From positions 6,778 to 70,777 of the forward strand of contig DATFFT010000032.1 of the NCBI GenBank assembly GCA_035249905.1: a stretch of DNA of 64,000 nt, written 5' to 3'. Within the stretch, counting starts at the first letter, position 1, and each line of letters starts with the position of its first letter. This DNA comes from Actinomycetota bacterium (GTDB taxonomy: Bacteria; Actinomycetota; UBA4738; HRBIN12). Shown piece by piece: positions 9,792 through 50,230 of this stretch. Both the position numbers and the translations under genes were made by a program. The notes beneath the pieces are model-generated. The model made no database searches. It worked only from the letters and a program-made list of their open reading frames with translations, and had not been told where the DNA came from.

Positions 9792-10019
9792 ATGCTCAAC
9801 ACCATCGTGATCGTGATCGACGTGATCGCCGCGCTCTTCCTGATCCTGACGATCCTGCTGCACTCGGGGCGGGGGAGCGGCCTGTCCGACATGTTCGGCG
9901 GCACGTCGTCGCTCTCGGGCGGCACCGCCATGGAGCGCACCCTCGACCGCCTCACGGTCATCACCGCCCTGGTCTTCGGCCTCTGCACGTTCTACCTCGC
10001 CTGGCAGTGGAACCCGTAA
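9792..10019 (+). CDS. secG: preprotein translocase subunit SecG
   Basis: 75 aa, two TM segments, LLHSGRGSGLSDMFGG motif. Classic actinobacterial position downstream of pgk-tpi. Confidence 0.85.
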   Translation: MLNTIVIVIDVIAALFLILTILLHSGRGSGLSDMFGGTSSLSGGTAMERTLDRLTVITALVFGLCTFYLAWQWNP

Positions 10020-10063: not shown

Positions 10064-10153
10064 GTCGGAGTGGCGGAATCTGGTAGACGCGCTAGGTTGA
10101 GGGCCTAGTCCCCAGCGATGGGGGTGGGGGTTCAAGTCCCCCCTCCGACACCA
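10064..10153 (+). tRNA. tRNA-Leu (anticodon GAG), type II with long variable arm
   Basis: Cloverleaf folded by hand. Acceptor gtcggag/ctccgac, D-arm gcg-gaatctggtaga-cgc, anticodon stem ctagg/cctag with loop ttGAGgg, long variable arm, T-arm ggggg-ttcaagt-ccccc, discriminator A and encoded CCA. Confidence 0.9.
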
Positions 10154-18797: not shown

Positions 18798-18897
18798 GCG
18801 CAGGGCCACGTGAAGTCTGACCGGGGGACAGCAGGGGTGCTGCCTCGGCCCGCTCTCCGGTCATACGATGCGCTCCGACATCCCGGAGGGAGCGACC

Positions 18898-20058
18898 ATG
18901 CCTGAAGCGTTCGACATGTCCTTGGTCCAGCGCGGCGCCCGGAATCGCCGCACGCCGTACTTCGAGGCGACCCAGCGGTACGGACCCAAGGGGTTCACGG
19001 TCTACAACCACATGTACTTCCCGATCCGCTTCGACTCTTTCGAGGCCGAGTTCGACGCGCTGCTGAACGCCGTCACCCTCTGGGACGTGTCGGTCGAACG
19101 GTGCCTCGAGATCTCCGGGCCCGACGGCTTCCGGTTCGCGCAACTCCTGACGCCGCGTGATCTGTCGAAGTGCGCCGTCGGACAGGCGAAGTACGTGTTG
19201 ATCTGCGACAGCGACGGCGGCATCGTCAACGACCCCGTGCTCACGCGCATGGACGAGAACACGTTCTGGTTCGCCCTCGCCTCGAGCGACGCCCTGCTGT
19301 TCGCTCGCGGCCTCAAGAACGCGTACCCGGACCTCGACGTCACCATCCAGGAAGCCGATGTCGCCCCGCTGCAGGTGCAGGGGCCCAGGTCGAAGGACCT
19401 CATGGTGAAGCTGCTCGGCGACGAGATCCTCGAGCTCAAGTACTACTTCTGGACCGAGGCGAAGATCGCCGGGGTTCCCGTCGTGGTCACCCGCACCGGC
19501 TGGACGTCCGAGGTGGGCTACGAGGTCTACACCACGGACACCTCGCGCGGGAACGACGTCTACGAGGCGATCATGGAAGCCGGCCAGGAGTTCGGCATCG
19601 TGCCGACCGGACCCAGCGACATCCGGCGCATCGAGGGTGCGATCTTCAACTGGGGTGCCGACATGACCTACGAGAACAACCCCATCGAGATGGGCCTCGA
19701 GCGCCTCGTCGACTGGGACACGCTCGCCGACGACGCGTGCATCTCGCTCGCGGCCCTGCGTCGCATCCGCGACGCCGGTGCGGACCGCCGCATCGTCGGG
19801 GTCGAGCTCGACGGCGATCCGTTCCCGGGGTTGAACAACGTGAAATGGCCCGTGTCCGACGAGACGGGGGTGATCGGGAAGGTCACCTCGGCGATCCACT
19901 CCCCGCGGCTCGAGAAGAACATCGGATTCGCGTGGGTCCCGGCGGATCGGTCGGCGAACGGCACGTCGTTCCGCGTGGATTCCGAATGGGGAAGCCGCGG
20001 CGCGACGGTCGTGGAGATGCCGTTCGTCGATCCCAAGAAGCAGATCCCGGTCTCGTAG
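18898..20058 (+). CDS. DmdA-family (GcvT-like) tetrahydrofolate-dependent aminomethyltransferase/demethylase
   Basis: RBS GGAGGGA before ATG 18898. RRTPYFE..GFTVYNHMYFP..LWDVSVERCLEISGPD..LTPRDL..NDPV..PLQVQGP aligns along its length with Ruegeria DmdA and the GcvT fold. Confidence 0.8.
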   Translation: MPEAFDMSLVQRGARNRRTPYFEATQRYGPKGFTVYNHMYFPIRFDSFEAEFDALLNAVTLWDVSVERCLEISGPDGFRFAQLLTPRDLSKCAVGQAKYVLICDSDGGIVNDPVLTRMDENTFWFALASSDALLFARGLKNAYPDLDVTIQEADVAPLQVQGPRSKDLMVKLLGDEILELKYYFWTEAKIAGVPVVVTRTGWTSEVGYEVYTTDTSRGNDVYEAIMEAGQEFGIVPTGPSDIRRIEGAIFNWGADMTYENNPIEMGLERLVDWDTLADDACISLAALRRIRDAGADRRIVGVELDGDPFPGLNNVKWPVSDETGVIGKVTSAIHSPRLEKNIGFAWVPADRSANGTSFRVDSEWGSRGATVVEMPFVDPKKQIPVS

Positions 20059-20206
20059 CGGCTGCCTGAAGCGCCGTTCAGCGCTGGGCCCCCTGGCCCC
20101 GGGCCGGGACGAGTTGCGATAGGCTTCCCGTTTGAACGATGATTCAGCGAGCGCCGGCGTCGGCCGAGCACGCGGGTCAGGAAGCGAGAACGGGAGGGGT
20201 TCCCCG

Positions 20207-21388
20207 ATGGTGCATGAACGGCAAGAGATGCTCGAGAAGAGCGCGACCCTGTACTTCGGTCCGTGGTACCGCCAATCGCCCTTCTTCGCGGCGACCCGGC
20301 GGGCGGGCTGCACCGCCTACGACATCTACAACCACATGTACCTGCCCGGGTACTACGACGACCCCGAGACCGAATACTGGGCGCTGGCCAACGCCGTCAC
20401 GATGTGGGACGTCGGTGTCGAGCGCACGATCGAGGTGAGCGGGCCCGACGCCGACCGGCTGATCGACATGATCACCTGCCGAGACCTCACGACGTGCGCG
20501 GTCAAGCAGGGCAAGTACATGCTCGTGACCGCTGCCGACGGCTCGATCGTCAATGACCCCGTGCTGCTGCACGTGGGTGAGAACCGGTGGTGGATGCAGC
20601 TGGCCGACTCCGACGCCGGCCTGTACGCGCTCGGCGTCGCGGCGACCAGCGGGCTCGACGTCGAGGTCACCACGCCCGACGTGCACCCGATGCAGGTGCA
20701 GGGGCCCATGGCCGCCAAGACGCTCGAGAAGCTCGTCGGCCCCGCGATCTACGACATCAAGTACTACTGGATCGAGGAGTTCGACATCGACGGCATCCCG
20801 GTCGTGATCAGCCGCACCGGGTGGACCGCGATCCCGGGCTTCGAGGTGAACCTGCTCGATGGCGCCCGCGGCGACGAGCTCTGGGACAAGATCGCCTCGG
20901 CGGGCGCTGAGTTCGACATCCGTCCGATCGCCCCGTGCGAGGCGCGTCGCATCGAGGCGGGCATCTTCAACTACGGGTCCGACATCCGCCTGGGCGACAC
21001 CCCGTTCCACGTGATGGGGCTCGAGCGCCTCGTCGAGGAGCAGTCCCAGGACTACATCGGCAAGGCCGCGCTCGAGGAGCTCCGGGCGAAGGGTGTCGAC
21101 CGCAAGCTCGTCGGCATCGAGCTCGAAGGCGACGAGCTGCGCGCCGAGATGTCGGAGTACTGGAACGTCTCGCGCGACGGGAAGCAGGTCGGCCACATGA
21201 CCGACGCGGTCTGGTCACCCGGCCTCAAGAAGAACATCGGCTACGTGTGGGTGCCGATCGCGCTCGCCGAGGCCGGGAACCGCCTCGACATCGAGACCGA
21301 GGACGGTGAGCACCTGGTCGGCACGACCGCCACGATCCCGTTCGTGGACCCACGGAAGGAACAGCCCGCCGGCACGTTGAAGGGGTGA
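20207..21388 (+). CDS. DmdA-family (GcvT-like) aminomethyltransferase, tandem paralog
   Basis: RBS GGGAGGGG before ATG 20207. Same motif set as the upstream paralog (YRQSPFF..YDIYNHMYLP..MWDVGVERTIEVSGPD..NDPV..PMQVQGP). Roughly 45-50% identical to it by eye. Confidence 0.8.
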   Translation: MVHERQEMLEKSATLYFGPWYRQSPFFAATRRAGCTAYDIYNHMYLPGYYDDPETEYWALANAVTMWDVGVERTIEVSGPDADRLIDMITCRDLTTCAVKQGKYMLVTAADGSIVNDPVLLHVGENRWWMQLADSDAGLYALGVAATSGLDVEVTTPDVHPMQVQGPMAAKTLEKLVGPAIYDIKYYWIEEFDIDGIPVVISRTGWTAIPGFEVNLLDGARGDELWDKIASAGAEFDIRPIAPCEARRIEAGIFNYGSDIRLGDTPFHVMGLERLVEEQSQDYIGKAALEELRAKGVDRKLVGIELEGDELRAEMSEYWNVSRDGKQVGHMTDAVWSPGLKKNIGYVWVPIALAEAGNRLDIETEDGEHLVGTTATIPFVDPRKEQPAGTLKG

Positions 21389-21527
21389 CCGGCGTCCGGC
21401 GATCCGGCCGGTCCCCGGAACATCATCGGTGTCTCTCAGCGTTCTCCCAGCTGAAACCCCTAGCGTGGGGGCGTGGAACCACGCGATGTGGGATAGGAGC
21501 ATCCTGATGGCTGATGGGAGATCCTCG

Positions 21528-22637
21528 ATGAGACGAACGACGATCGTGATGCTGGCGACGCTCGCCCTGACGGCGAGCGCCTGCTCGCTGTCCTTCGGTG
21601 AGGGGGGAGATCAGGGCGGAGGTGCCGGACTCACCAGCGCCGACACCTCGGCGGCGCCGCTCGATCCCGGCAAGGAGCCGGTCGCGGCGGTGGTCGATCG
21701 CGTGCTTCCCTCCGTCGTCAACGTGACCACCGACGTCTACCAGGCCGACGGCAGCTCGGGCCAGGGCGTCGGCACCGGGTTCATCGTCCGCGAGGACGGC
21801 GTCATCGTGACCAACTGTCATGTCGTGGAGGGTGGCTCGCGGCTCACGGTGTTCCTCTCCGACGAGGATCGCACCGAGTACGAGGCGCGGCTGATCGGAG
21901 CCGACTGCCTGAACGATCTGGCCGTGCTCGACATCGACGAGGAAGGGCTCCCGACCGTGCCGCTCGGCGACTCCGGGGGCCTGCGCCTCGGCCAACGTGT
22001 GGTCGCGCTCGGCTACGCGCTCGGCCTCGAGGGCGGGCCGACCGTGACGACCGGTATCGTCTCGTCGCTCGATCGAACGATCGAGGCGCAGGACCCGAAC
22101 TGCCGAGCGTGCCCCAACCGCGTCCGGACCTACCCGAGCGTCATCCAGACCGACGCTGCGATCAACCCGGGCAACTCGGGCGGACCGCTCGTCGACATGC
22201 GGGGCCGCGTGGTCGGCATCAACTCCGCCGGCAACGGCCAGGCCGAGAACATCGGCTTCGCGATCAAGATCAACTTCGTGCGCGAGACGATCCAATCGTC
22301 GATCGAGGACCCGCTCGCGGCGACCGGCTACCTCGGCGTCTCCACGACCGCGGTCACGCCCGACCTCCGGTTCCAGCAGAACCTGTCCGTCGAGACAGGC
22401 GCCTTCGTCGTCGGCACCTTGGCCGACGGGCCGGCGGCCGCGGCGGGCATCGGAGAGGGCGATGTGATCGTGGGGCTGAACGGCGAGGCGGTCGACTCAC
22501 CCGACGACCTCGGCGCGGTGCTCGACGGGCTGAAGCCCGGCGACGCCGTCTCGGTGGAGCTCGCCGAGCCGGAGGGTGGTACCCGCACGGTCGAGGTGGA
22601 GCTCGCCGCGCGGCCGCTCCCGGTCGAGATCCCGTAG
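21528..22637 (+). CDS. HtrA/DegP-family serine protease with PDZ domain
   Basis: Trypsin-like catalytic motifs (VVTNCHVV His, D, GNSGGPLVD Ser) plus a C-terminal PDZ domain (GDVIVGLNGEAV). Lipoprotein-like signal MRRTTIVMLATLALTASAC. Confidence 0.88.
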   Translation: MRRTTIVMLATLALTASACSLSFGEGGDQGGGAGLTSADTSAAPLDPGKEPVAAVVDRVLPSVVNVTTDVYQADGSSGQGVGTGFIVREDGVIVTNCHVVEGGSRLTVFLSDEDRTEYEARLIGADCLNDLAVLDIDEEGLPTVPLGDSGGLRLGQRVVALGYALGLEGGPTVTTGIVSSLDRTIEAQDPNCRACPNRVRTYPSVIQTDAAINPGNSGGPLVDMRGRVVGINSAGNGQAENIGFAIKINFVRETIQSSIEDPLAATGYLGVSTTAVTPDLRFQQNLSVETGAFVVGTLADGPAAAAGIGEGDVIVGLNGEAVDSPDDLGAVLDGLKPGDAVSVELAEPEGGTRTVEVELAARPLPVEIP

Positions 22638-22680
22638 CCGAACCGGCACCTCGCGGGACCCGTGCGTTAGCCTGGGTCCC

Positions 22681-22881
22681 GTGAAGGTGAGGCTCCGCAA
22701 CCCCGACCGCGAGGTCGAGCTGCACGGAGGGCGACCGATCCGCGAGGTGCTCGCGGAGCTCGACGTCGACCCCGACACCGTGCTCGTGATCCGCGCCGGG
22801 GAGCTGGTGACCCGTCACGAGAACGTCGGTGAGGACGACGAGCTCGAGATCCGTCCGGTGATCTCCGGGGGCACCGCATGA
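22681..22881 (+). CDS. ThiS/MoaD-fold sulfur-carrier protein, TtuB-like, ending GG-TA
   Basis: 66 aa from GTG 22681: VKVRLRNPDREVELHGGRPIREVLAELDVDPDTVLVIRAGELV...ELEIRPVISGGTA. The ubiquitin-like beta-grasp pattern resembles Thermus TtuB. Stop overlaps the ttuA start (ATGA). Confidence 0.65.
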   Translation: MKVRLRNPDREVELHGGRPIREVLAELDVDPDTVLVIRAGELVTRHENVGEDDELEIRPVISGGTA

Positions 22882-23876
22882 AGTGCAAGCGCTGCAAGGG
22901 GACCGCGGTCATCGAGGTCCGCCGGCACAACGCCGCGTTCTGCAAGGCGTGCTTCACTCACGTGTTCACCGAGCAGGTCCGCACGGCGATCCGGCGGTTC
23001 GACATGTTCGAGCCGACCGACAGCATCCTGGTCGCGGTCTCGGGGGGAAAGGACTCGCTCGCACTCTGGGATGTCCTGCTCGGCCTGGGATACGAGGCCA
23101 CCGGCCTGTACCTGGGTCTCGGCATCGGCGGGTACTCCGATCGTTCGCACGATGCCGCCGCCGCGTTCGCGGGAGCCAGTGGGGCCGAGCTCCGCGTCGT
23201 CGACCTCGCCGACGAGTACGGCTACGACATCCCGACGGCGGGACGGAAGGGCTCTCGTTCCACGTGCGCTGTCTGTGGGCTCTCGAAGCGCTACGTCTTC
23301 AACCGGGCCGCGGCCGACGGTGGGTTCGACGTGATCGCGACCGGGCACAATCTCGACGACGAGGCCGCAACCTTGCTCGGGAACACGCTGCGTTGGAAAA
23401 CCGACTACATCGCGCGGCAGTCCCCGGCCCTGCCGGCGAGGGACGGCATGGTCAAGAAGGTCAAGCCGCTGCACCGCCTGAGCGAGCTCGAGACGGCCGC
23501 GTACGCGTTCCTCCGGGGCATCGACTACGTGGTGGAGGAGTGCCCCCTCGTCGCCGGGAACACCCAATTGCGCTACAAGAACGCGATGAACACGATCGAG
23601 GCGACGAGCCCCGGCACGAAGGCGCAGTTCCTCTTCGGGTACCTCGACCGCGGCATGCGGCTGTTCGCGGGCCACGACGAGGTGGCGCTCGTCCCGTGCG
23701 GTTCCTGCGGGCAGCCCACGACCGGCCGGTTCTGTGCGTTCTGCCGGGCGCGCGCGCAGATCCTGGGCGAACGTCTCGGAGCGGCCGATCGCCCGGGTAC
23801 CGACGATCGTGAGGTGGCTCGCTGGCTGTCCGACGAGGTGCTGCCGGCCGAGATCTACGGCAGGGCCGAGGTGTGA
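22878..23876 (+). CDS. ttuA: tRNA 2-thiouridine(54) synthetase TtuA-like PP-loop ATPase
   Basis: N-terminal Zn finger CKRCKG..FCKAC, PP-loop SGGKDS, central CAVCG, C-terminal CGSCGQPTTGRFCAFC. Near-colinear with T. thermophilus TtuA. Confidence 0.85.
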   Translation: MKCKRCKGTAVIEVRRHNAAFCKACFTHVFTEQVRTAIRRFDMFEPTDSILVAVSGGKDSLALWDVLLGLGYEATGLYLGLGIGGYSDRSHDAAAAFAGASGAELRVVDLADEYGYDIPTAGRKGSRSTCAVCGLSKRYVFNRAAADGGFDVIATGHNLDDEAATLLGNTLRWKTDYIARQSPALPARDGMVKKVKPLHRLSELETAAYAFLRGIDYVVEECPLVAGNTQLRYKNAMNTIEATSPGTKAQFLFGYLDRGMRLFAGHDEVALVPCGSCGQPTTGRFCAFCRARAQILGERLGAADRPGTDDREVARWLSDEVLPAEIYGRAEV

Positions 23877-24652
23877 GCCGAACGTTCGAGGCGGGCGACC
23901 GGGCCTTGCTGATCGACCAGCGCGACCGCACGTACCTGGTCAGGCTCGAGGTGGGAGCCACGTTCCACACGCACAGCGGCACGCTCGACCACGACGCCCT
24001 GATCGGCGCCGCCGAAGGCACCCGGTTCGAGACCTCGCGCGGCATGGTCCTCATGGCCTACCGCCCCAGGTTCGCCGACTTCGTGCTGAAGATGCCCAGG
24101 GGGGCACAGGTCGTCTATCCCAAAGACGTCGGGCCGATCGTGACCTATGCCGACGTTTACCCCGGCGCCAAGGTGATCGAGGCCGGCACGGGATCGGGCG
24201 CCCTCACGATCGCGCTCTGCCGCGCGGTCGGCGACGGTGGACGCGTCGTCTCCTACGAGGTGCGGAACGAGCATCGCGAGACGGCGGTCGCCAACATCGA
24301 GGCCTTCTTCGGCAAGATGCCCGACCAGGTCGATCTGCGCCGGGGGAGCGTCGGCGAGGTCGCCGGCGCCGACGAACGGTTCGACCGAGCGGTGCTGGAC
24401 CTGCCGGATCCGTGGACGGCGCTCGTGGCCCTACACGCCGTGCTGGAGCCGGGCGGCATCGCCTGCGCCTACCTGCCGACGACCGTGCAGGTGCAGCAGC
24501 TCGTGCTTGCCTTGCCGGGCAATGGATTCCAGCACATCGAGACCTTCGAGACCCTGCACCGAGGGTGGCACGTGAAGGAACGCAGCGTGCGACCGGATCA
24601 CCGGATGGTTGGACATACCGGGTTCATCACGATCGCCCGCCGTGAGGCATGA
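23873..24652 (+). CDS. trmI: tRNA (adenine58-N1)-methyltransferase TrmI
   Basis: 259 aa. SAM-binding VIEAGTGSGALT. Organisation as in M. tuberculosis Rv2118c, located upstream of the mpa/proteasome genes. Confidence 0.85.
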   Translation: MSRTFEAGDRALLIDQRDRTYLVRLEVGATFHTHSGTLDHDALIGAAEGTRFETSRGMVLMAYRPRFADFVLKMPRGAQVVYPKDVGPIVTYADVYPGAKVIEAGTGSGALTIALCRAVGDGGRVVSYEVRNEHRETAVANIEAFFGKMPDQVDLRRGSVGEVAGADERFDRAVLDLPDPWTALVALHAVLEPGGIACAYLPTTVQVQQLVLALPGNGFQHIETFETLHRGWHVKERSVRPDHRMVGHTGFITIARREA

Positions 24653-24838
24653 TCCGGCGGTGTCGCCGCCGCGCGATACGGTCCTCGCAGGGAGCGCGCG
24701 CGGGAACTACCTAGGAATGGGCATTACACGTTCACCGAGAACTTCCGTATGACTAAGGAAGGAGACTCGAGCAGCGCTCCACGGCAACAGGGGGAGCTGG
24801 GGGTACCATCCGGCTCGACCCCGCTGGAGGTGACACCC

Positions 24839-26578
24839 ATGGCGGATCGAGAGCAGGTCGAGCGGTACGACGCTCAGGTGCAGGAGCTCCGGGGACAGGT
24901 GAAGTTCCTGGAGGAAGAGATCGGCCTGCTCCGGCGTCGCCTCACGAACGCTCCACGCCAGGTCACCGTCCTCGAAGGGAAGCTCGTCGAGGCGCGCGAG
25001 CAGCTCGAGCGCGCGGTCTCCCAGAACCAGAAGCTCGCCGACGCCCTCCGCGCCGAGCGCGACAAGATCGAGTCGCTCGCCGAGGAGGTCGAGAAGCTCT
25101 CCCAACCCCCGGCGTCGTTCGGCATCTATCTGACCAGCAACGACGACGGCTCGCTCGACGTGTTCACCGCGGGCCGCAAGATGCGTGTGATGGCCGCTCC
25201 CGACGTCGACGAACGGACCCTGCGACCCGGGGCGCAGGTCGTGCTGAACGATTCGCTCAACGTGGTCGAGGTGGTCGACCCCGAGCGTTCGGGTGAGGTC
25301 GCGAAGGTCAAGGATCGGCTCGGCGACGATCGCGTGATCGTGGTCGGCCGCGGCGACGAGGAGTACGTCGCGCATCTCGCGGGGCATCTGCTCGGGTCGC
25401 ACGTGCGAGCCGGCGACAACGTGCTGTTCGACGGTCGTTCCGGCGTCGCGACCGAGCTGCTTCCCAAGGAAGAGGTCGAGGAGCTCGTGCTCGAGGAGAT
25501 CCCCGACGTGAGCTACGAGGACATCGGCGGCCTCGAGGGTCAGATCGATTCGATCCGCGACGCGGTGGAGCTGCCGTTCCTGTACGCGGAGCTGTTCGCC
25601 GAGCACGAGCTCGAGGCGCCGAAGGGGGTGCTCCTGTACGGGCCCCCCGGCTGCGGAAAAACGCTGATCGCCAAGGCGGTCGCGAAGTCGCTCGCCGAGA
25701 AGGTGGCGGAGCGCACCGGCCGCTCCGACGCCCGCAGCTACTTCCTCAACGTCAAGGGTCCCGAGCTGCTCAACAAGTACGTGGGGGAGACCGAGCGACA
25801 GATCCGAGAGATCTTCATCCGCGCGAAGGAGCGGAGCGAGGAAGGTCTCCCAGTGATCGTGTTCTTCGACGAGATGGACTCGATCTTCCGCACGCGGGGC
25901 ACGGGCATCTCCAGCGATGTCGAGTCCACGATCGTGCCGCAGCTGCTGTCCGAGCTCGATGGGGTCGAGACGCTGAAGAACGTCATCGTCATCGGGGCGT
26001 CGAACCGCGAGGACCTGATCGACCCCGCGATCCTTCGCCCGGGCAGGCTCGACGTGAAGATCAAGATCGAACGGCCGAACCAACAGCAGGCGGCCGACAT
26101 CATGTCGAAGTACCTGCACCCGGTGGTCCCGATCCACCCCGACGAGGTGTCTCGGTACGGCGACGACGCCGCTCAGGCATGTCGCCGCATGATCGAGAAG
26201 ACGGTCGAGCAGATGTACGACCAGAACGAGCGGAACCGGTTCCTCGAGGTCACGTACGCGAGCGGCGACAAGGAGATCCTGTACTTCAAGGACTTCAACT
26301 CCGGTGCGATGATCGAGAACATCGTGCGCAGGGCGAAGAAGGACGCGATCAAGCGATTCCTGTCGATGGGCGACAAGGGCATCAAGACCGACGACCTGTT
26401 GACCGCGATCCGAGACGAGTTCAAGGAGAACGAGGACCTCCCCAACACGACGAACCCCGACGACTGGGCACGCATCTCCGGCAAGAAGGGCGAACGGATC
26501 GTCTACGTGCGCACGCTCCTCGGCCACGACGGCGACGGGCGTCAGGTCGAACGCGTGAATGCCGGGCAGTACCTGTAA
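24839..26578 (+). CDS. mpa: proteasome-associated AAA+ ATPase Mpa/ARC
   Basis: N-terminal coiled coil, OB domains, Walker A GPPGCGKT, Walker [12 protein letters not shown]-terminal GQYL proteasome-docking motif. Start set at ATG 24839 (RBS GGAGGTGA); upstream ATG 24749 is an in-frame alternative. Confidence 0.93.
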
Positions 26579-26587
26579 GGTGGCCGC

Positions 26588-28072
26588 GTGGCCATCCCCA
26601 AGGTCTTCGGGACCGAGACGGAGTACGGCATCGCGGCGGCCGGTGCGCCCGATTTCAACCCCGTCCTGTCGTCGTCGCTGCTGATCTCGACCTACGCCGG
26701 CTCGCTCAGACGCATCCGCTGGGACTACGAGCAGGAGTCGCCGCTGCGCGACGCTCGCGGCTTCGAGCCGACCCCGGTCCGCGAGGGGAGCGACGAGGAC
26801 CTGGGGCTGGCGAACGTGATCCTGCCCAACGGCGCGCGGTACTACGTCGATCACGCGCACCCCGAGTACTCGACGCCCGAGTGCATCACGCCGAAGGAGC
26901 TCGTGGTGCACGACAAGGCCGGGGAGCGCATCCTCGAGCGATCGCTGCGCGAGGTGGCGAAGGCGATGCCGAGCGCGCCGCGTCTGTCGATCTACAAGAA
27001 CAACTCCGACGGCAAGGGGAACAGCTACGGGACCCATGAGAACTACCTGGTGGACCGGGCGACGCCGTTCGGTGACATCGTGCGCGATCTCACCCCGTTC
27101 TTCGTGACGCGCATCGTGTTCACGGGCGCCGGCAAGGTCGGAGCCGAATCCCCGTGGGACGAGCGGGGACAGGCGATCTACCAGCTCACGCAGCGAGCGG
27201 ATTTCTTCGAGACCGAGGTGGGGCTCGAGACGACGCTGAAGCGGCCGATCATCAACACGCGAGACGAGCCGCACGCCGACCCGGAGCGGTACCGACGGCT
27301 ACATGTGATCGTCGGCGACGCGAACCTGTGCGAGGTGACCACCCTGCTCAAGGTCGGCACCACCGCGATCGTGCTCAAGATGATCGAGGACGGGTTCCTG
27401 CCCGACCTCTCGATCGCGAACCCCGTGCAGGCCCTGCACGAGATCTCCCGCGACATCACGTGCACGCACGAGGTCGCGTTGGACGACGGTCGGCGCGTGA
27501 ACGCGGTGCAGCTGCAATGGGAATACCTCGAGCACGCGAAGAAGTACGTGGAGCGCGAAGACGACACGCCCGAGAACCGCGACGTGCTGGAACGATGGGA
27601 AGGGGTGCTGAGCGGCCTGGAGACCGACCCCGCCACCCTGCATCGTGAGCTCGACTGGGTCGCGAAGCATCGCGTGCTCCAGGCCTATCGCGATCGGGAC
27701 GGTCTCGAATGGAACGACCCGAAGCTTCGGGCGATCGACCTGCAGTACCACGATGTTCAGCGCGACAAGGGGCTGTACTACCGGCTGGAAGCCGCCGGAA
27801 AGGTCGAGCGGGTGAGCACCGACGACGAGGTCGAGATCGCGGTGATGGATCCCCCCATCGACACTCGAGCGTATTTCCGTGGGCGATGCATCGACAAGTA
27901 CCCCGATGCGATCGCGGCGGCATCGTGGGACTCGTTGATCGTCGACACGGGGGCAGAAGCCCTGCAGCGCATCCCGATGCGTGAGCCGCTCCGGGGAACC
28001 AAGGCGCACGTCGAGGGGTTGCTCGCCACGAGCGACGACGCCGCCTCGCTCGTGGCGAAGCTCCAGGGCTGA
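26588..28072 (+). CDS. dop: Pup deamidase/depupylase Dop
   Basis: 494 aa. KVFGTETEYGI N-terminus. Homologous to PafA but aligns with M. tuberculosis Dop (RWDYEQESPLRDARGFEP). Confidence 0.9.
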   Translation: MAIPKVFGTETEYGIAAAGAPDFNPVLSSSLLISTYAGSLRRIRWDYEQESPLRDARGFEPTPVREGSDEDLGLANVILPNGARYYVDHAHPEYSTPECITPKELVVHDKAGERILERSLREVAKAMPSAPRLSIYKNNSDGKGNSYGTHENYLVDRATPFGDIVRDLTPFFVTRIVFTGAGKVGAESPWDERGQAIYQLTQRADFFETEVGLETTLKRPIINTRDEPHADPERYRRLHVIVGDANLCEVTTLLKVGTTAIVLKMIEDGFLPDLSIANPVQALHEISRDITCTHEVALDDGRRVNAVQLQWEYLEHAKKYVEREDDTPENRDVLERWEGVLSGLETDPATLHRELDWVAKHRVLQAYRDRDGLEWNDPKLRAIDLQYHDVQRDKGLYYRLEAAGKVERVSTDDEVEIAVMDPPIDTRAYFRGRCIDKYPDAIAAASWDSLIVDTGAEALQRIPMREPLRGTKAHVEGLLATSDDAASLVAKLQG

Positions 28073-28158: not shown

Positions 28159-28359
28159 GTGCCGCAGGAGCAGGAGCAGAAGAAGGCACAGCGCAAGGGC
28201 GGTGGCGACTCCGACGCCGACGCCGCCCAGGTGCGATCGTCCTCCAAGGCCTCCGAGCTGAAGGAGGAGATGGACGACATCCTCGACGAGATCGACTCGG
28301 TCCTCGAGGAGAACGCCGAGGAGTTCGTCAAGAGCTACGTGCAGAAGGGCGGCGAGTGA
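28159..28359 (+). CDS. pup: prokaryotic ubiquitin-like protein Pup (C-terminal GGE)
   Basis: 66 aa, acidic and disordered. DDILDEIDSVLEENAEEFVKSYVQKGGE. RBS AAAGGAG before GTG 28159. Confidence 0.93.
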   Translation: MPQEQEQKKAQRKGGGDSDADAAQVRSSSKASELKEEMDDILDEIDSVLEENAEEFVKSYVQKGGE

Positions 28360-49266: not shown

Positions 49267-49489
49267 CGGCTCATCATAGGGGGGGTGGCCGGGCACGGGG
49301 ACGGGCGGACAGGCGATCGATCCGTCGCATCGGCCGGCCCTCACCCGGCCCACGAGCGGGGGAGCGGGGCGGGGGATGCTTCCTTATTCCGGCGGCCGAT
49401 TGCCCGGCCGGCCTCCTCCCGGGTACAAACGTGCTTCCGACGCCGACCTCCTTCCGGCCCGTCGTGACGATCCGGGGGGAGGGTTCCAC

Positions 49490-50230
49490 GTGCGTCCGAA
49501 CGATCCATCGCGCCTGCTCCGTCGGCGGAGCGACGCGATCCGCACGGTCGTGGTCGCGAAGCCGGGTGGTGGGATCCGCACGCTGACCGTTCTGGGTACC
49601 CGTGATCTGCGACGGTACGAGGCCGTCGTCGCCGCCGTCGTGCCGTCGGTGGAGCGAGCCCTGGGGCGGGTGGCGGCGGCCAACCGGGCTCAGGTCGTCG
49701 CGACGGGGCTCCGGCTCGAAGCATGGCCCAGCGCCCGACGTCGGTACCGTCGGGCCGTCGCCTCGGCCGCGGCCGGGCGGTTCCGGGCGGCCTTCGTGGG
49801 TGATGTCCGCGACTGCTACGGCTCGATCACGCTCGCCGAGGTGGCGCGGGCTCTCCACGGGATCGGTGTGCGCGAGGCCCGGGTGGAACCGATCGTCGAG
49901 ACGCTCCGATGGTTCGAGGAGCTCGGCGTGCGTGGACTCCCGGTCGGGCCCGCGCCGTCCGCCGTGCTCGCGAATGCCGTGCTCGCCCCGGTCGATCGGG
50001 CGCTCACGGGCGCCGTCGACGGCCCGGTGCTCCGCTGGGTCGACGACGTCGTGGCGTTCGCGACGGACCGTCAGAGCGCCGGACGGGCAGCGGCCGCGTT
50101 CGAACGGGCGCTCGACGACGTCGGGCTGACCCCGCATCCGGGCAAGTGCATGACGCTGCACGACCCCGAGGCCGTGGGGGCGAGCGCTGGCGGCAGTCAC
50201 TCGGGCCCGCAGGGTTCCGACGTGGCATGA
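49490..50230 (+). CDS. minimal reverse-transcriptase-like protein (fingers and palm only, 246 aa)
   Basis: GTG 49490 after RBS GGGGGAGGG.
- RT motif 1: VVVAKPGGGIRTLTVLGTRDLRRYEAVV.
- Motif 3: FVGDVRDCYGSIT.
- Motif 4: GLPVGPAPSAVLANAVLAPVD.
- Motif 5: VLRWVDDVVAF (WVDD in place of YADD).
- Motif 6: GLTPHPGKCM.
- No motif 7, thumb or any other domain. Confidence 0.6.
   Translation: MRPNDPSRLLRRRSDAIRTVVVAKPGGGIRTLTVLGTRDLRRYEAVVAAVVPSVERALGRVAAANRAQVVATGLRLEAWPSARRRYRRAVASAAAGRFRAAFVGDVRDCYGSITLAEVARALHGIGVREARVEPIVETLRWFEELGVRGLPVGPAPSAVLANAVLAPVDRALTGAVDGPVLRWVDDVVAFATDRQSAGRAAAAFERALDDVGLTPHPGKCMTLHDPEAVGASAGGSHSGPQGSDVA

Follow-up and report, generated by a model that had tools for sequence, protein, structure and literature searches.

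How can a ubiquitin-fold sulfur carrier work when its C-terminal Gly-Gly is followed by further residues? This question is raised by a gene cluster in the 64-kb stretch of actinomycetotal DNA that was analysed here (the window), in which a TtuB-like carrier gene precedes ttuA and trmI. With moderate confidence, we postulate that the cluster is a translationally coupled three-gene operon for tRNA T-loop modification, whose carrier is made as a GG-Thr-Ala precursor and then trimmed. The features on which the argument turns are these:

22681..22881, + strand: ttuB-like ubiquitin-fold sulfur carrier, precursor form (ORF, Pfam ThiS, TtuB match in the PDB, AF2 model)
22867..22872, + strand: Gly63-Gly64 codons, GGG GGC (sequence)
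22873..22878, + strand: post-GG tail Thr-Ala, 2 residues (sequence), presumably removed before adenylation and thiocarboxylation
22878..23876, + strand: ttuA, predicted [4Fe-4S] PP-loop tRNA 2-thiouridine(54) synthetase (Pfam, NCBIfam and PDB matches)
23873..24652, + strand: trmI, tRNA m1A58 methyltransferase (Pfam and PDB matches, position downstream of ttuA)

The carrier ORF runs from a GTG start at 22681 to a TGA stop at 22879-22881 and encodes 66 residues ending in IRPVISGGTA. Pfam assigns the product to ThiS (E 8.7e-7), and its best sequence match in the PDB is T. thermophilus TtuB (E 4e-13, 53% identity), with which it aligns from end to end, the terminal ISGG included, whereas the match to SAMP2 is far weaker (E 7e-5). 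The AF2 model is a beta-grasp (pLDDT 87), for which Foldseek returned the TtuB chains of 5ZTB and 5GHA as top matches (TM 0.84-0.87, the highest value belonging to chain 5ZTB_E); residues 64-66 are modelled with a pLDDT below 50. GenBank annotates a MoaD/ThiS protein of the same 66 residues (HJR97176.1), and its accession neighbours that of the identical TtuA (HJR97177.1). The carrier adjoins ttuA and is closest to TtuB among solved proteins. Its translated product has no free Gly-Gly end, as is also the case for most of its relatives, and a free GG is obtainable only through processing.

The second gene, ttuA (332 aa), starts with an ATG at 22878 that overlaps the carrier stop (ATGA). Its product contains the Pfam domains TtuA_LIM_N (E 1.7e-9) and ATP_bind_3, the PP-loop domain. 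Alignment with 27 relatives revealed that the PP-loop motif SGGKDS at positions 55-60, which aligns with the Thermus motif, is invariant, as are the zinc-finger cysteines (Cys3/6/22/25 and Cys274/277/286/289), the [4Fe-4S]-cluster positions Cys130/133/222, which align without gaps to Thermus TtuA, and Lys137. The third gene, trmI (259 aa), begins with a GTG at 23873 overlapping the ttuA stop (GTGA), and its product matches GCD14 (1.1e-28) and TrmI-like_N (3.5e-15) in Pfam, and M. tuberculosis Rv2118c (223 bits) and T. thermophilus TrmI (164 bits) in the PDB. Of 81 loci from Actinomycetota, Binatia and one Bacillota MAG, 75 show the same gene order, carrier-ttuA-trmI, with trmI directly downstream of ttuA; the two genes overlap by 4 nt in 51 loci and meet to within a few nucleotides in most others. 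A scan of 21300-24900 for promoters and terminators found none. Judged from these sequences, the three genes form a conserved operon for T-loop modification, which borders on the Pup-proteasome cluster. An earlier note, made from the sequence of the window, had described a 66-aa ThiS/MoaD-fold carrier ending in SGGTA rather than GG, a TtuA-type PP-loop thiolase with three Cys clusters, and TrmI as the third gene joined by a 4-nt overlap; all of these assignments are borne out, and its reading of the cluster as a T-loop modification module is strongly supported by the conserved ttuA-trmI adjacency. Its further statement that m1A58 formation by TrmI promotes s2T54 formation in Thermus is confirmed by the literature, where m1A58 is a positive determinant of thiolation at position 54 (PMC6313347, PMC7912444).

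The target of the PP-loop enzyme is presumably position 54 of tRNA. Alternatively, the enzyme might be a TtuA paralogue that makes s2U34 (NcsA/Ncs6-like) or s2C32 (TtcA-like) or acts on a non-tRNA substrate, its link to trmI being incidental. Its score against the curated NCBIfam equivalog model for TtuA (NF049949) is 268 bits, under the cut-off of 450, the model being of the archaeal Pyrococcus type, and m5s2U54 has been described as thermophile-specific (PMC6313347), while the hosts look largely non-thermophilic. Nevertheless, we consider a paralogue improbable: the enzyme is nearer to characterised TtuA proteins (T. thermophilus, 302 bits and 50% identity; P. horikoshii, 244 bits) than to NcsA (91 bits) in the PDB, the NcsA and TtcA models of NCBIfam score only 115 and 74 bits, and the gene is tightly coupled to that of a T-loop enzyme throughout the 75 loci, which belong to several phyla. 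The bacterial Thermus enzyme is a closer relative than the Pyrococcus type.

The TtuA/TtuB system of Thermus thermophilus (with TtuC, TtuD and IscS), part of a TrmI-dependent m5s2U54 network, uses the same enzyme and carrier families, and the present locus shares with it the PP-loop, the Fe-S cysteines, the zinc fingers, Lys137, the ISGG end of the carrier and the presence of TrmI. It differs in that Thermus TtuB ends at GG in the deposited structure, while the present carrier ends in GG-Thr-Ala and carriers of relatives are fused; moreover, trmI is here joined to ttuA by the 4-nt overlap, and the hosts, judged by their names, belong mostly to non-thermophilic lineages. Our literature search, which was incomplete, returned no description of a ttuA-trmI operon, of TtuB tails or of TtuB-TtuA fusions.

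The most trivial explanation of the tail would be an artefact, i.e., an error of sequencing or assembly or a wrongly called stop, and the earlier note had named a true stop after GG, hidden by a sequencing error, as an observation that would overturn its reading. We give this explanation a negligible probability. Residues beyond the invariant PVISGG are found in 116 of the 120 closest carrier homologues, which come from independent assemblies and thereby rule out such an error; in the tailed homologues, the in-frame stop always overlaps the ttuA start, and GenBank annotates the 66-aa form. The tail comprises two residues in 88 and three in 20 of these 120 homologues, and from 1 to more than 40 residues family-wide. 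The 79 carriers encoded beside ttuA comprise 56 tailed forms, 10 that stop at GG and 13 in-frame fusions to TtuA; a profile search of 1.84 billion proteins yielded about 141 representatives in which the GG motif could be identified, only 9 of them GG-ended. When a fused protein was used as the query, all 120 matches listed (from JGI, ENA, NCBI and Logan) were 370-420 aa long, and in 119 of them the carrier GG leads through a short linker into the TtuA zinc finger. Distinct fusion clusters in public data number at least 119; many fusions have linkers of just 3-10 residues, and 18 linkers among the fusion matches listed have no Met at all. Hence, the post-GG tail is a family trait.

The composition of this segment is also informative. 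RPVISGG, both glycines included, is invariant in free, tailed and fused carriers, which, as it holds even in the fusions, argues that GG is used as a terminus and not as a mere linker. The position directly after GG is occupied by A, S, G or T in all 119 fusions and in 104 of 116 tails, and no such restriction applies to the remaining residues of tail or linker; the GG-plus-linker segment has a pLDDT below 50 and is thus predicted to be flexible. Moreover, the GG-ended, tailed and fused states are scattered over the TtuA tree and alternate among close relatives, so they are interchangeable. Given a tail after the reactive Gly-Gly and a fusion in many relatives, clipping is probably needed, and we suggest that a protease probably cuts the carrier after Gly-Gly. 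The need for C-terminal trimming had already been proposed for this carrier, and the family-wide tails and in-frame fusions strengthen the proposal.

Why should a carrier be produced with residues that have to be removed? The Gly-Gly codons provide a GGNGG sequence 6 nt upstream of the ttuA ATG, a spacing shared by 36 of the 66 unfused loci. Of these 66 loci, 35 have GGRGG, against a background of 34% and against 3 of 13 fusions; the enrichment over background codon use (p 0.0012, with related loci treated as independent) is not seen in the fusions. It is therefore likely, as read from the nucleotide sequence, that GGGGG at the Gly63-Gly64 codons is the Shine-Dalgarno element of ttuA. The Gly-Gly codons would then double as the ribosome-binding site, with the ttuA start about 6 nt downstream of it, and the carrier tail would exist because of this gene architecture: with the ttuA start at that distance and the carrier stop overlapping it, two extra codons follow. 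Tail lengths, among which 2 and 3 dominate, agree with the ribosome-binding geometry. The locus may serve as an example of gene overlap shaping a protein end.

If the tail is removed, a protease has to do it, and an E1-like enzyme and a sulfur donor have to act on the carrier afterwards. Pfam searches of nearly all called genes revealed no JAMM, ThiF/MoeB, rhodanese or cysteine desulfurase gene in the window, and none was recurrent within 10 kb of ttuA in 80 related loci; a JAMM-motif regular expression run over all six frames of the window and of these 80 loci gave only chance matches. The absence of a JAMM gene from the window, claimed in the earlier note, is thus borne out. Neither a TtuC nor a TtuD gene was seen nearby. 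The neighbours were surveyed with Pfam, covering 10 recurrent neighbour clusters and the 150 non-clustered ORFs nearest to ttuA (within about 2.3 kb); no JAMM, E1 or rhodanese occurred among these clusters or among the 25 commonest families of the 150 ORFs, a scope in which a single occurrence could be hidden. As to the unannotated recurrent clusters, numbers 12 and 18 are antisense artefacts, number 21 is a small membrane protein, and the conserved protein of number 25, about 130-210 aa long, shows no obvious protease motif. One protease gene does lie close to the carrier gene:

21429..22637, + strand: HtrA-like S1C protease with PDZ domain and lipoprotein-type signal peptide (Pfam Trypsin_2 and PDZ)

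An HtrA-like protease is linked in 39 of the 80 loci, upstream in the clade of the window and downstream of trmI in Acidimicrobiia. The copies of all relatives carry a signal or lipobox sequence or a multi-TM N-terminus, and because every copy has either a lipoprotein-type signal peptide or a multi-TM N-terminus, the protease domain should be extracytoplasmic. It is therefore unlikely, though not disproved, that this protein is the processing enzyme, and it probably stands outside the system. Since no linked JAMM or E1 gene was found, we purely infer the protease and the E1. The known tailed carriers QbsE and CxnE adjoin a JAMM gene, and the present carrier has none beside it, which speaks against our main explanation.

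Possibly, the tail or fusion is never removed and the beta-grasp protein assists TtuA in a structural or regulatory role, with sulfur coming from free sulfide or a [4Fe-4S]-bound persulfide. The lack of a linked processing enzyme or E1 in the 80 neighbourhoods and the frequency of fusions with 3-10-residue linkers would fit such a role. Arragain and colleagues reportedly found in 2017 that some TtuA enzymes, from other species, use inorganic sulfide in vitro, so a thiocarboxylate donor would not be strictly required. We nonetheless regard permanent retention as rather unlikely. A mere linker would hardly account for an RPVISGG that is invariant in free, tailed and fused carriers, the post-GG position is limited to small residues while the remaining tail or linker is variable, and the three forms interchange among close relatives; furthermore, the alignment of the carrier with Thermus TtuB runs from one end to the other and takes in the terminal GG, the sulfur-carrying end of TtuB (PMC7138817).

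The trimming that we favour has precedents. The earlier note had cited CysO and QbsE. The CysO part does not hold well, because the protease Mec acts on a CysO-Cys adduct, which makes CysO/Mec an imperfect model. The QbsE part stands (PMC5925218), and by analogy QbsE/QbsD, CxnE/CxnF and the MoaD-MoaE fusions are the better precedents (PMC5925218, PMC4326299, PMC8832034). QbsE (GG-CF) and CxnE (GG plus 10 aa), processed with QbsD and CxnF, respectively, are likewise ThiS/MoaD-fold carriers whose GG is masked by extra residues, which must go before E1 activation (PMC5925218). They differ in belonging to secondary-metabolite pathways, whereas the present operon points to tRNA modification, and in having a JAMM gene in the same cluster, of a type found neither in the window nor in the 80 related neighbourhoods. 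In the MoaD-MoaE fusions M. tuberculosis MoaX and D. radiodurans DR2607, the carrier lies upstream of its partner enzyme, as in the TtuB-TtuA fusions of relatives. The activity of MoaX needs cleavage after GG at Gly82|Ser83, again with a small post-GG residue (PMC4326299), and DR2607 is cleaved by DR0402 (PMC8832034). The gene for the mycobacterial MoaX protease is unlinked (PMC4326299). The partner enzyme and pathway are different, and the fusion design, present in relatives (13 of 79 loci), is absent from the window, where the tailed carrier is encoded by a separate gene. From the family-wide tails and fusions we infer processing at GG, as for MoaX, QbsE and CxnE. Ubiquitin-fold thiocarboxylate carriers also work with PP-loop thiolases of the TtuA superfamily in eukaryotes (Urm1-Ncs6/Ncs2) and archaea (SAMP2-NcsA), and these carriers have a dual carrier/modifier potential (PMC3980101), which the present one may share; in contrast, they target U34, are made GG-ended, and show much weaker similarity (91 bits for NcsA, E 7e-5 for SAMP2).

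Based on these comparisons, the proposed pathway would start with methylation of A58 by TrmI, which is known from Thermus to favour thiolation at position 54. TtuA would then adenylate U54 or T54 and exchange O2 for sulfur supplied by the C-terminal thiocarboxylate of the carrier. For this, the tail would first be cut off exactly after GG by a protease encoded elsewhere, most likely of the JAMM/MPN+ type, and the C-terminal Gly64 would presumably be the site of adenylation by an E1-like enzyme (TtuC/MoeZ type, also encoded elsewhere) and of subsequent thiocarboxylation via a persulfide donor. The same protease activity would free the carrier from the natural carrier-TtuA fusions of related organisms.

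Downstream of trmI, the window contains genes of the Pup-proteasome system:

24749-26578, + strand: arc/mpa (Pfam)
26588-28072, + strand: dop (Pfam)
stop at 28359, + strand: pup (translation ending in QKGGE)

These three genes form the start of the Pup-proteasome cluster, to which prcB (a proteasome subunit) and pafA, identified with Pfam, also belong; pup itself lies 3.5 kb downstream, and the Pup, Dop and PafA genes lie 2-7 kb downstream. The earlier note was therefore right that the same genome carries Pup, and it could be asked whether the carrier serves mainly for protein modification, as a second, ubiquitin-like tagging system beside Pup in which one isopeptidase both processes and deconjugates. 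In Thermus, TtuB is indeed attached to TtuA at Lys137, and the conjugates are changed in a JAMM mutant (PMC3980101); the corresponding Lys137 is invariant in the present family, ubiquitin-like proteins that undergo conjugation are typically made as precursors, and the Pup genes are close by. Even so, a main role in conjugation seems very improbable to us: a linked E1, E2 or JAMM gene was not found in the neighbourhoods searched, and the carrier's strict association with ttuA and trmI argues for tRNA thiolation. The nearness of Pup is inherited synteny, since trmI adjoins arc/mpa throughout Actinomycetota, and in Binatia, Rokubacteria and Bacillota the operon is found without Pup genes; this nearness is no evidence for an interaction of the two tagging systems. 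Pup resembles the carrier in being a small tag with a C-terminal GG-X motif (GGE), but its fold and chemistry are unrelated, as it is disordered and ligated via its Glu side chain by PafA.

The thermophilic lifestyle that the locus had been taken to hint at is unsupported. The great majority of relatives are MAGs labelled Acidimicrobiia, Microthrixaceae, Ilumatobacteraceae, Nitriliruptoria and Rokubacteria, by name mostly non-thermophilic-looking lineages. The apparent sources of these MAGs are surveys of soil, groundwater and sludge. The IVYWREL fraction of the window (0.407) translates into about 46 °C, a rough and equivocal value that lies inside the error margin of the method and is skewed by high GC content and stop-to-stop ORFs. 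All reports of m5s2U54 so far come from thermophiles (PMC6313347). We suggest tentatively, with rather less than even confidence, that thiolation of tRNA position 54 takes place in a large section of the Actinomycetota, most of it uncultured and apparently non-thermophilic, as well as in some Binatia, Rokubacteria and others, and that these bacteria routinely make TtuB as a precursor or as a TtuB-TtuA polyprotein. If this is true, bacteria that already use Pup would possess a dedicated GG-specific processing protease, which could also be the enzyme that cleaves mycobacterial MoaX. The search for such a GG-cleaving protease dates back to the work on mycobacterial MoaX (PMC4326299), and the tailed and fused carriers would offer a clean and abundant substrate for finding it. 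They would also place ubiquitin-like precursor processing, with cleavage exactly after Gly-Gly, among the regular steps of a housekeeping pathway in these organisms. Should the operon be active, thermophiles would not be alone in the 2-thiolation of U54 or T54, and the coupling of this thiolation to m1A58 would be hard-wired into one transcript across a large bacterial radiation.

On the plus strand of the window (G+C, 68.7%), three genes follow one another head to tail, and the ORFs read from the sequence have the coordinates, overlaps and carrier C-terminus that the earlier note described. The operon and its surroundings are as follows:

18868-21388, +: two tandem GcvT-like aminomethyltransferase paralogues, upstream of the HtrA-like protease gene
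21429-22637, +: HtrA-like protease, upstream of the operon
22681 (GTG) to 22879-22881 (TGA), +: ttuB-like sulfur carrier, 66 aa, C-terminus ...IRPVISGG-TA, Pfam ThiS
22878 (ATG) to 23876, +: ttuA, 332 aa, Pfam TtuA_LIM_N and PP-loop, start overlapping the carrier stop (ATGA)
23873 (GTG) to 24652, +: trmI, 259 aa, Pfam GCD14 and TrmI-like_N, start overlapping the ttuA stop (GTGA)
Downstream of the operon: arc/mpa, dop, pup (28159-28359, +, ending GGE), proteasome subunit prcB, pafA, WYL regulator, tatC, helY-like helicase

Pfam matches and nearest solved structures likewise support the gene assignments made in that note (TtuB-like, TtuA, TrmI). The TtuA-like protein, 100% identical to GenBank HJR97177.1, has T. 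thermophilus TtuA as its nearest solved relative (302 bits for residues 1-291; 50.5% identity) and scores 244 bits against Pyrococcus TtuA vs only 91 bits against the U34 thiolase NcsA; with the NCBIfam equivalog model for TtuA, which is of the Pyrococcus type, it reaches 268 bits, below the cut-off of 450. Its PP-loop, three Fe-S cysteines, both zinc fingers and Lys137, which in Thermus TtuA is a site of TtuB conjugation (PMC3980101), are invariant in 27 relatives. The structure nearest to the carrier is T. thermophilus TtuB (E 4e-13, 53% identity), whose terminal ISGG aligns with the ISGG of the carrier; in its AlphaFold model (pLDDT 87) the carrier adopts a beta-grasp fold with a TM of 0.84-0.87 on TtuB chains, and residues 64-66 are predicted to be disordered. 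For the trmI product, the nearest structure is M. tuberculosis TrmI, Rv2118c (223 bits).

A TtuA-alignment scan with one genome per species yielded 80 related loci, all from MAGs (81 including the window). Sixteen are close relatives (TtuA identity 71-82%), while the remaining loci, at 52-61%, bear the labels Acidimicrobiia, Nitriliruptoria, Rokubacteria/Methylomirabilota, Binatia, one Bacillota and one Acidobacteriota. The carrier gene lies upstream of ttuA in 79 of the 81 loci, both exceptions having ttuA at a contig edge, and trmI directly follows ttuA in 75, with a start/stop overlap of 4 nt in 51 loci and the two genes no more than a few bases off this in most others; loci without trmI belong only to Rokubacteria, Methylomirabilota and Acidobacteriota. 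Hence, the T-loop modification module proposed in the earlier note is borne out, and its conservation across several phyla argues that it is real and old. We found no published description of a ttuA-trmI operon in a literature search. The promotion of thiolation by TrmI activity, also invoked in that note, is documented for Thermus, where m1A58 is a positive determinant of 2-thiolation at position 54 (PMC6313347, PMC7912444). Additionally, 21 related loci (L078:11819-12109 and 20 others), though not the window, encode a small ferredoxin with a single cluster (Pfam Fer4_15, E 3e-17) between trmI and arc, whose presence could reflect either a role as electron or Fe-S partner of TtuA or no more than synteny.

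The tail after Gly-Gly is a family trait. Residues beyond the invariant PVISGG occur in 116 of the 120 closest carrier homologues (two residues in 88, three in 20, none in 4). Among the 79 carriers adjoining ttuA, 10 end in GG, 56 are tailed (1-22 residues) and 13 are fused in frame to TtuA with no stop codon, in the layout carrier-GG-linker-TtuA. Searching with a fusion as query brought up at least 120 distinct clusters (90% identity) from JGI, ENA, NCBI and Logan assemblies, with proteins of 370-420 aa; 119 of the 120 listed have a linker of 3-21 residues (mode 7) after the carrier GG. Since 18 of these linkers contain no Met, those fusions cannot be separate genes misread. The pattern was the same when 1.84 billion representatives were searched with a profile: only 9 of the ~141 in which a GG motif could be identified were GG-ended, a rough count because the set includes fragments and long outliers. 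The TtuA tree shows at least two origins of fusions and at least four of GG-ended forms, with tails present in every phylum. Methylomirabilota-type carriers (L063:~9990-10004; database matches P0412 and P0423) have tails of 22-34 residues with a shared end (...SHPLP or ...RHPLP), which argues for some constraint and not random read-through. Moreover, many 258-aa TrmI proteins are found in the 90%-identity cluster represented by a 401-aa fusion (P0330, 1078 members); TtuA-TrmI or triple fusions could exist and have bridged this clustering, and none was present among the 80 loci.

Thermus TtuC adenylates the terminal Gly carboxylate of TtuB, followed by thiocarboxylation and delivery to the TtuA Fe-S cluster (PMC3980101, PMC7138817). 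A carrier ending in GG-Thr-Ala, or fused to TtuA, is unfit for sulfur delivery of this type, and a cut after GG would thus be required. RPVISGG is invariant across free, tailed and fused carriers; the next residue is A, S, G or T in 119/119 fusions and 104/116 tails, while the rest of the tail or linker varies freely; the junction states swap among close relatives on the TtuA tree; and the stretch from GG through the linker is predicted to be flexible. From these features we infer that the carrier is probably cut after GG. There are precedents for a carrier GG exposed by cleavage: JAMM proteases trim QbsE (GG-CF) and CxnE (GG plus 10 residues; PMC5925218), the M. tuberculosis MoaD-MoaE fusion MoaX is cut at Gly82/Ser83 by an unidentified protease, as needed for activity (PMC4326299), and DR0402, a JAMM protein encoded elsewhere, cleaves the MoaD-MoaE fusion of Deinococcus (PMC8832034). 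Among nearly all called genes of the 64-kb window, Pfam detected none for a JAMM protease, ThiF/MoeB, a rhodanese or a cysteine desulfurase, and an all-frame scan of the window gave no JAMM motif, in agreement with the absence of a JAMM gene remarked on earlier. The only recurrent protease neighbour of the operon is the HtrA-like gene, whose product is exported or membrane-anchored and hence an unlikely cutter of the tail. HtrA/MarP-like serine proteases accompany the operon in 39 of the 80 loci, at two different positions: upstream and lipoprotein-type in the window's clade, between trmI and arc and multi-TM in Acidimicrobiia.

Tail length may also reflect translation of ttuA. Exactly two residues form 38 of the 56 tails, and 36 of those 38 loci have the [A/G]TGA overlap. 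In unfused loci the Gly-Gly codons form a GGNGG pentamer, located 6 nt from the ttuA start in 36 of 66 and 5-9 nt from it in 44. A 6-nt spacer together with a 4-nt start/stop overlap dictates exactly two extra codons, and any shorter tail (zero or one residue) would bring the start too near the pentamer. A purine occupies the third position of the first Gly codon (GGAGG/GGGGG) in 35 of 66 unfused loci vs a 34% Gly-codon background (binomial p 0.0012) and vs 3 of 13 fusions (Fisher p 0.045), both tests taking loci as independent and ignoring relatedness. GG-ended variants have the stop right after GG, and in several the start follows 4-8 nt on, again with GGAGG. Probably, the Gly-Gly codons serve also as the Shine-Dalgarno element of ttuA, the tail being a spacer in the carrier frame.

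The downstream region corresponds to the canonical actinobacterial Pup-proteasome region, trmI adjoining mpa also in M. tuberculosis; prcA has no separate annotation in this region of the window. The presence of Pup in the same genome, pointed out in the earlier note, is confirmed. Among the 81 loci, arc and dop follow the operon in Actinomycetota only, and thus the link to Pup is nothing beyond inherited trmI-arc synteny; protein conjugation by the carrier, and any interplay with Pup, are speculation. With GGE instead of GGQ at its end, this Pup would not need deamidation by Dop before ligation; dop is nonetheless present. The GcvT-like pair is kept in the window's close clade, and glycine-cleavage P-protein genes lie at ~55.5-58.6 kb of the window. 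At 49280-50227 (+), flanked by genes for an Lrp/AsnC regulator and an amidohydrolase, a 316-aa ORF encodes a reverse-transcriptase domain (Pfam RVT_1, E 1e-10) and matches best in PADLOC to defence-associated RTs (Drt8, 1.9e-19; UG23; UG33); it covers only profile positions ~50-255 of ~490 and is apparently a DRT-type RT that has been truncated or has decayed. The sole tRNA gene in the window, tRNA-Leu(GAG) at 10064-10153 (+) beside a secG-like gene, has the T-loop TTCAAGT and with it both nucleotides that the operon presumably targets, U54 and A58.

The operon is widespread in Microthrixaceae, Ilumatobacteraceae and Nitriliruptoraceae, which are mesophilic at the family level, and occurs also in MAGs whose names suggest soil, groundwater and sludge surveys; the amino-acid composition index of the window is ~46 C, within the method's error. 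Hence, the thermophilic lifestyle hinted at previously is not borne out. Given that m5s2U54 has been described as thermophile-specific (PMC6313347), the enzyme might have shifted to a target other than position 54. We favour this less, since the similarity to TtuA and the linkage to trmI speak for position 54, and we prefer the reading that the hosts thiolate position 54 at moderate temperature. The parts of the system are ordinary, the enzyme, the carrier and the methyltransferase all being known; what is notable is that the carrier would be made systematically as a precursor or polyprotein, within a conserved T-loop operon, in hosts that were not expected to have the modification.
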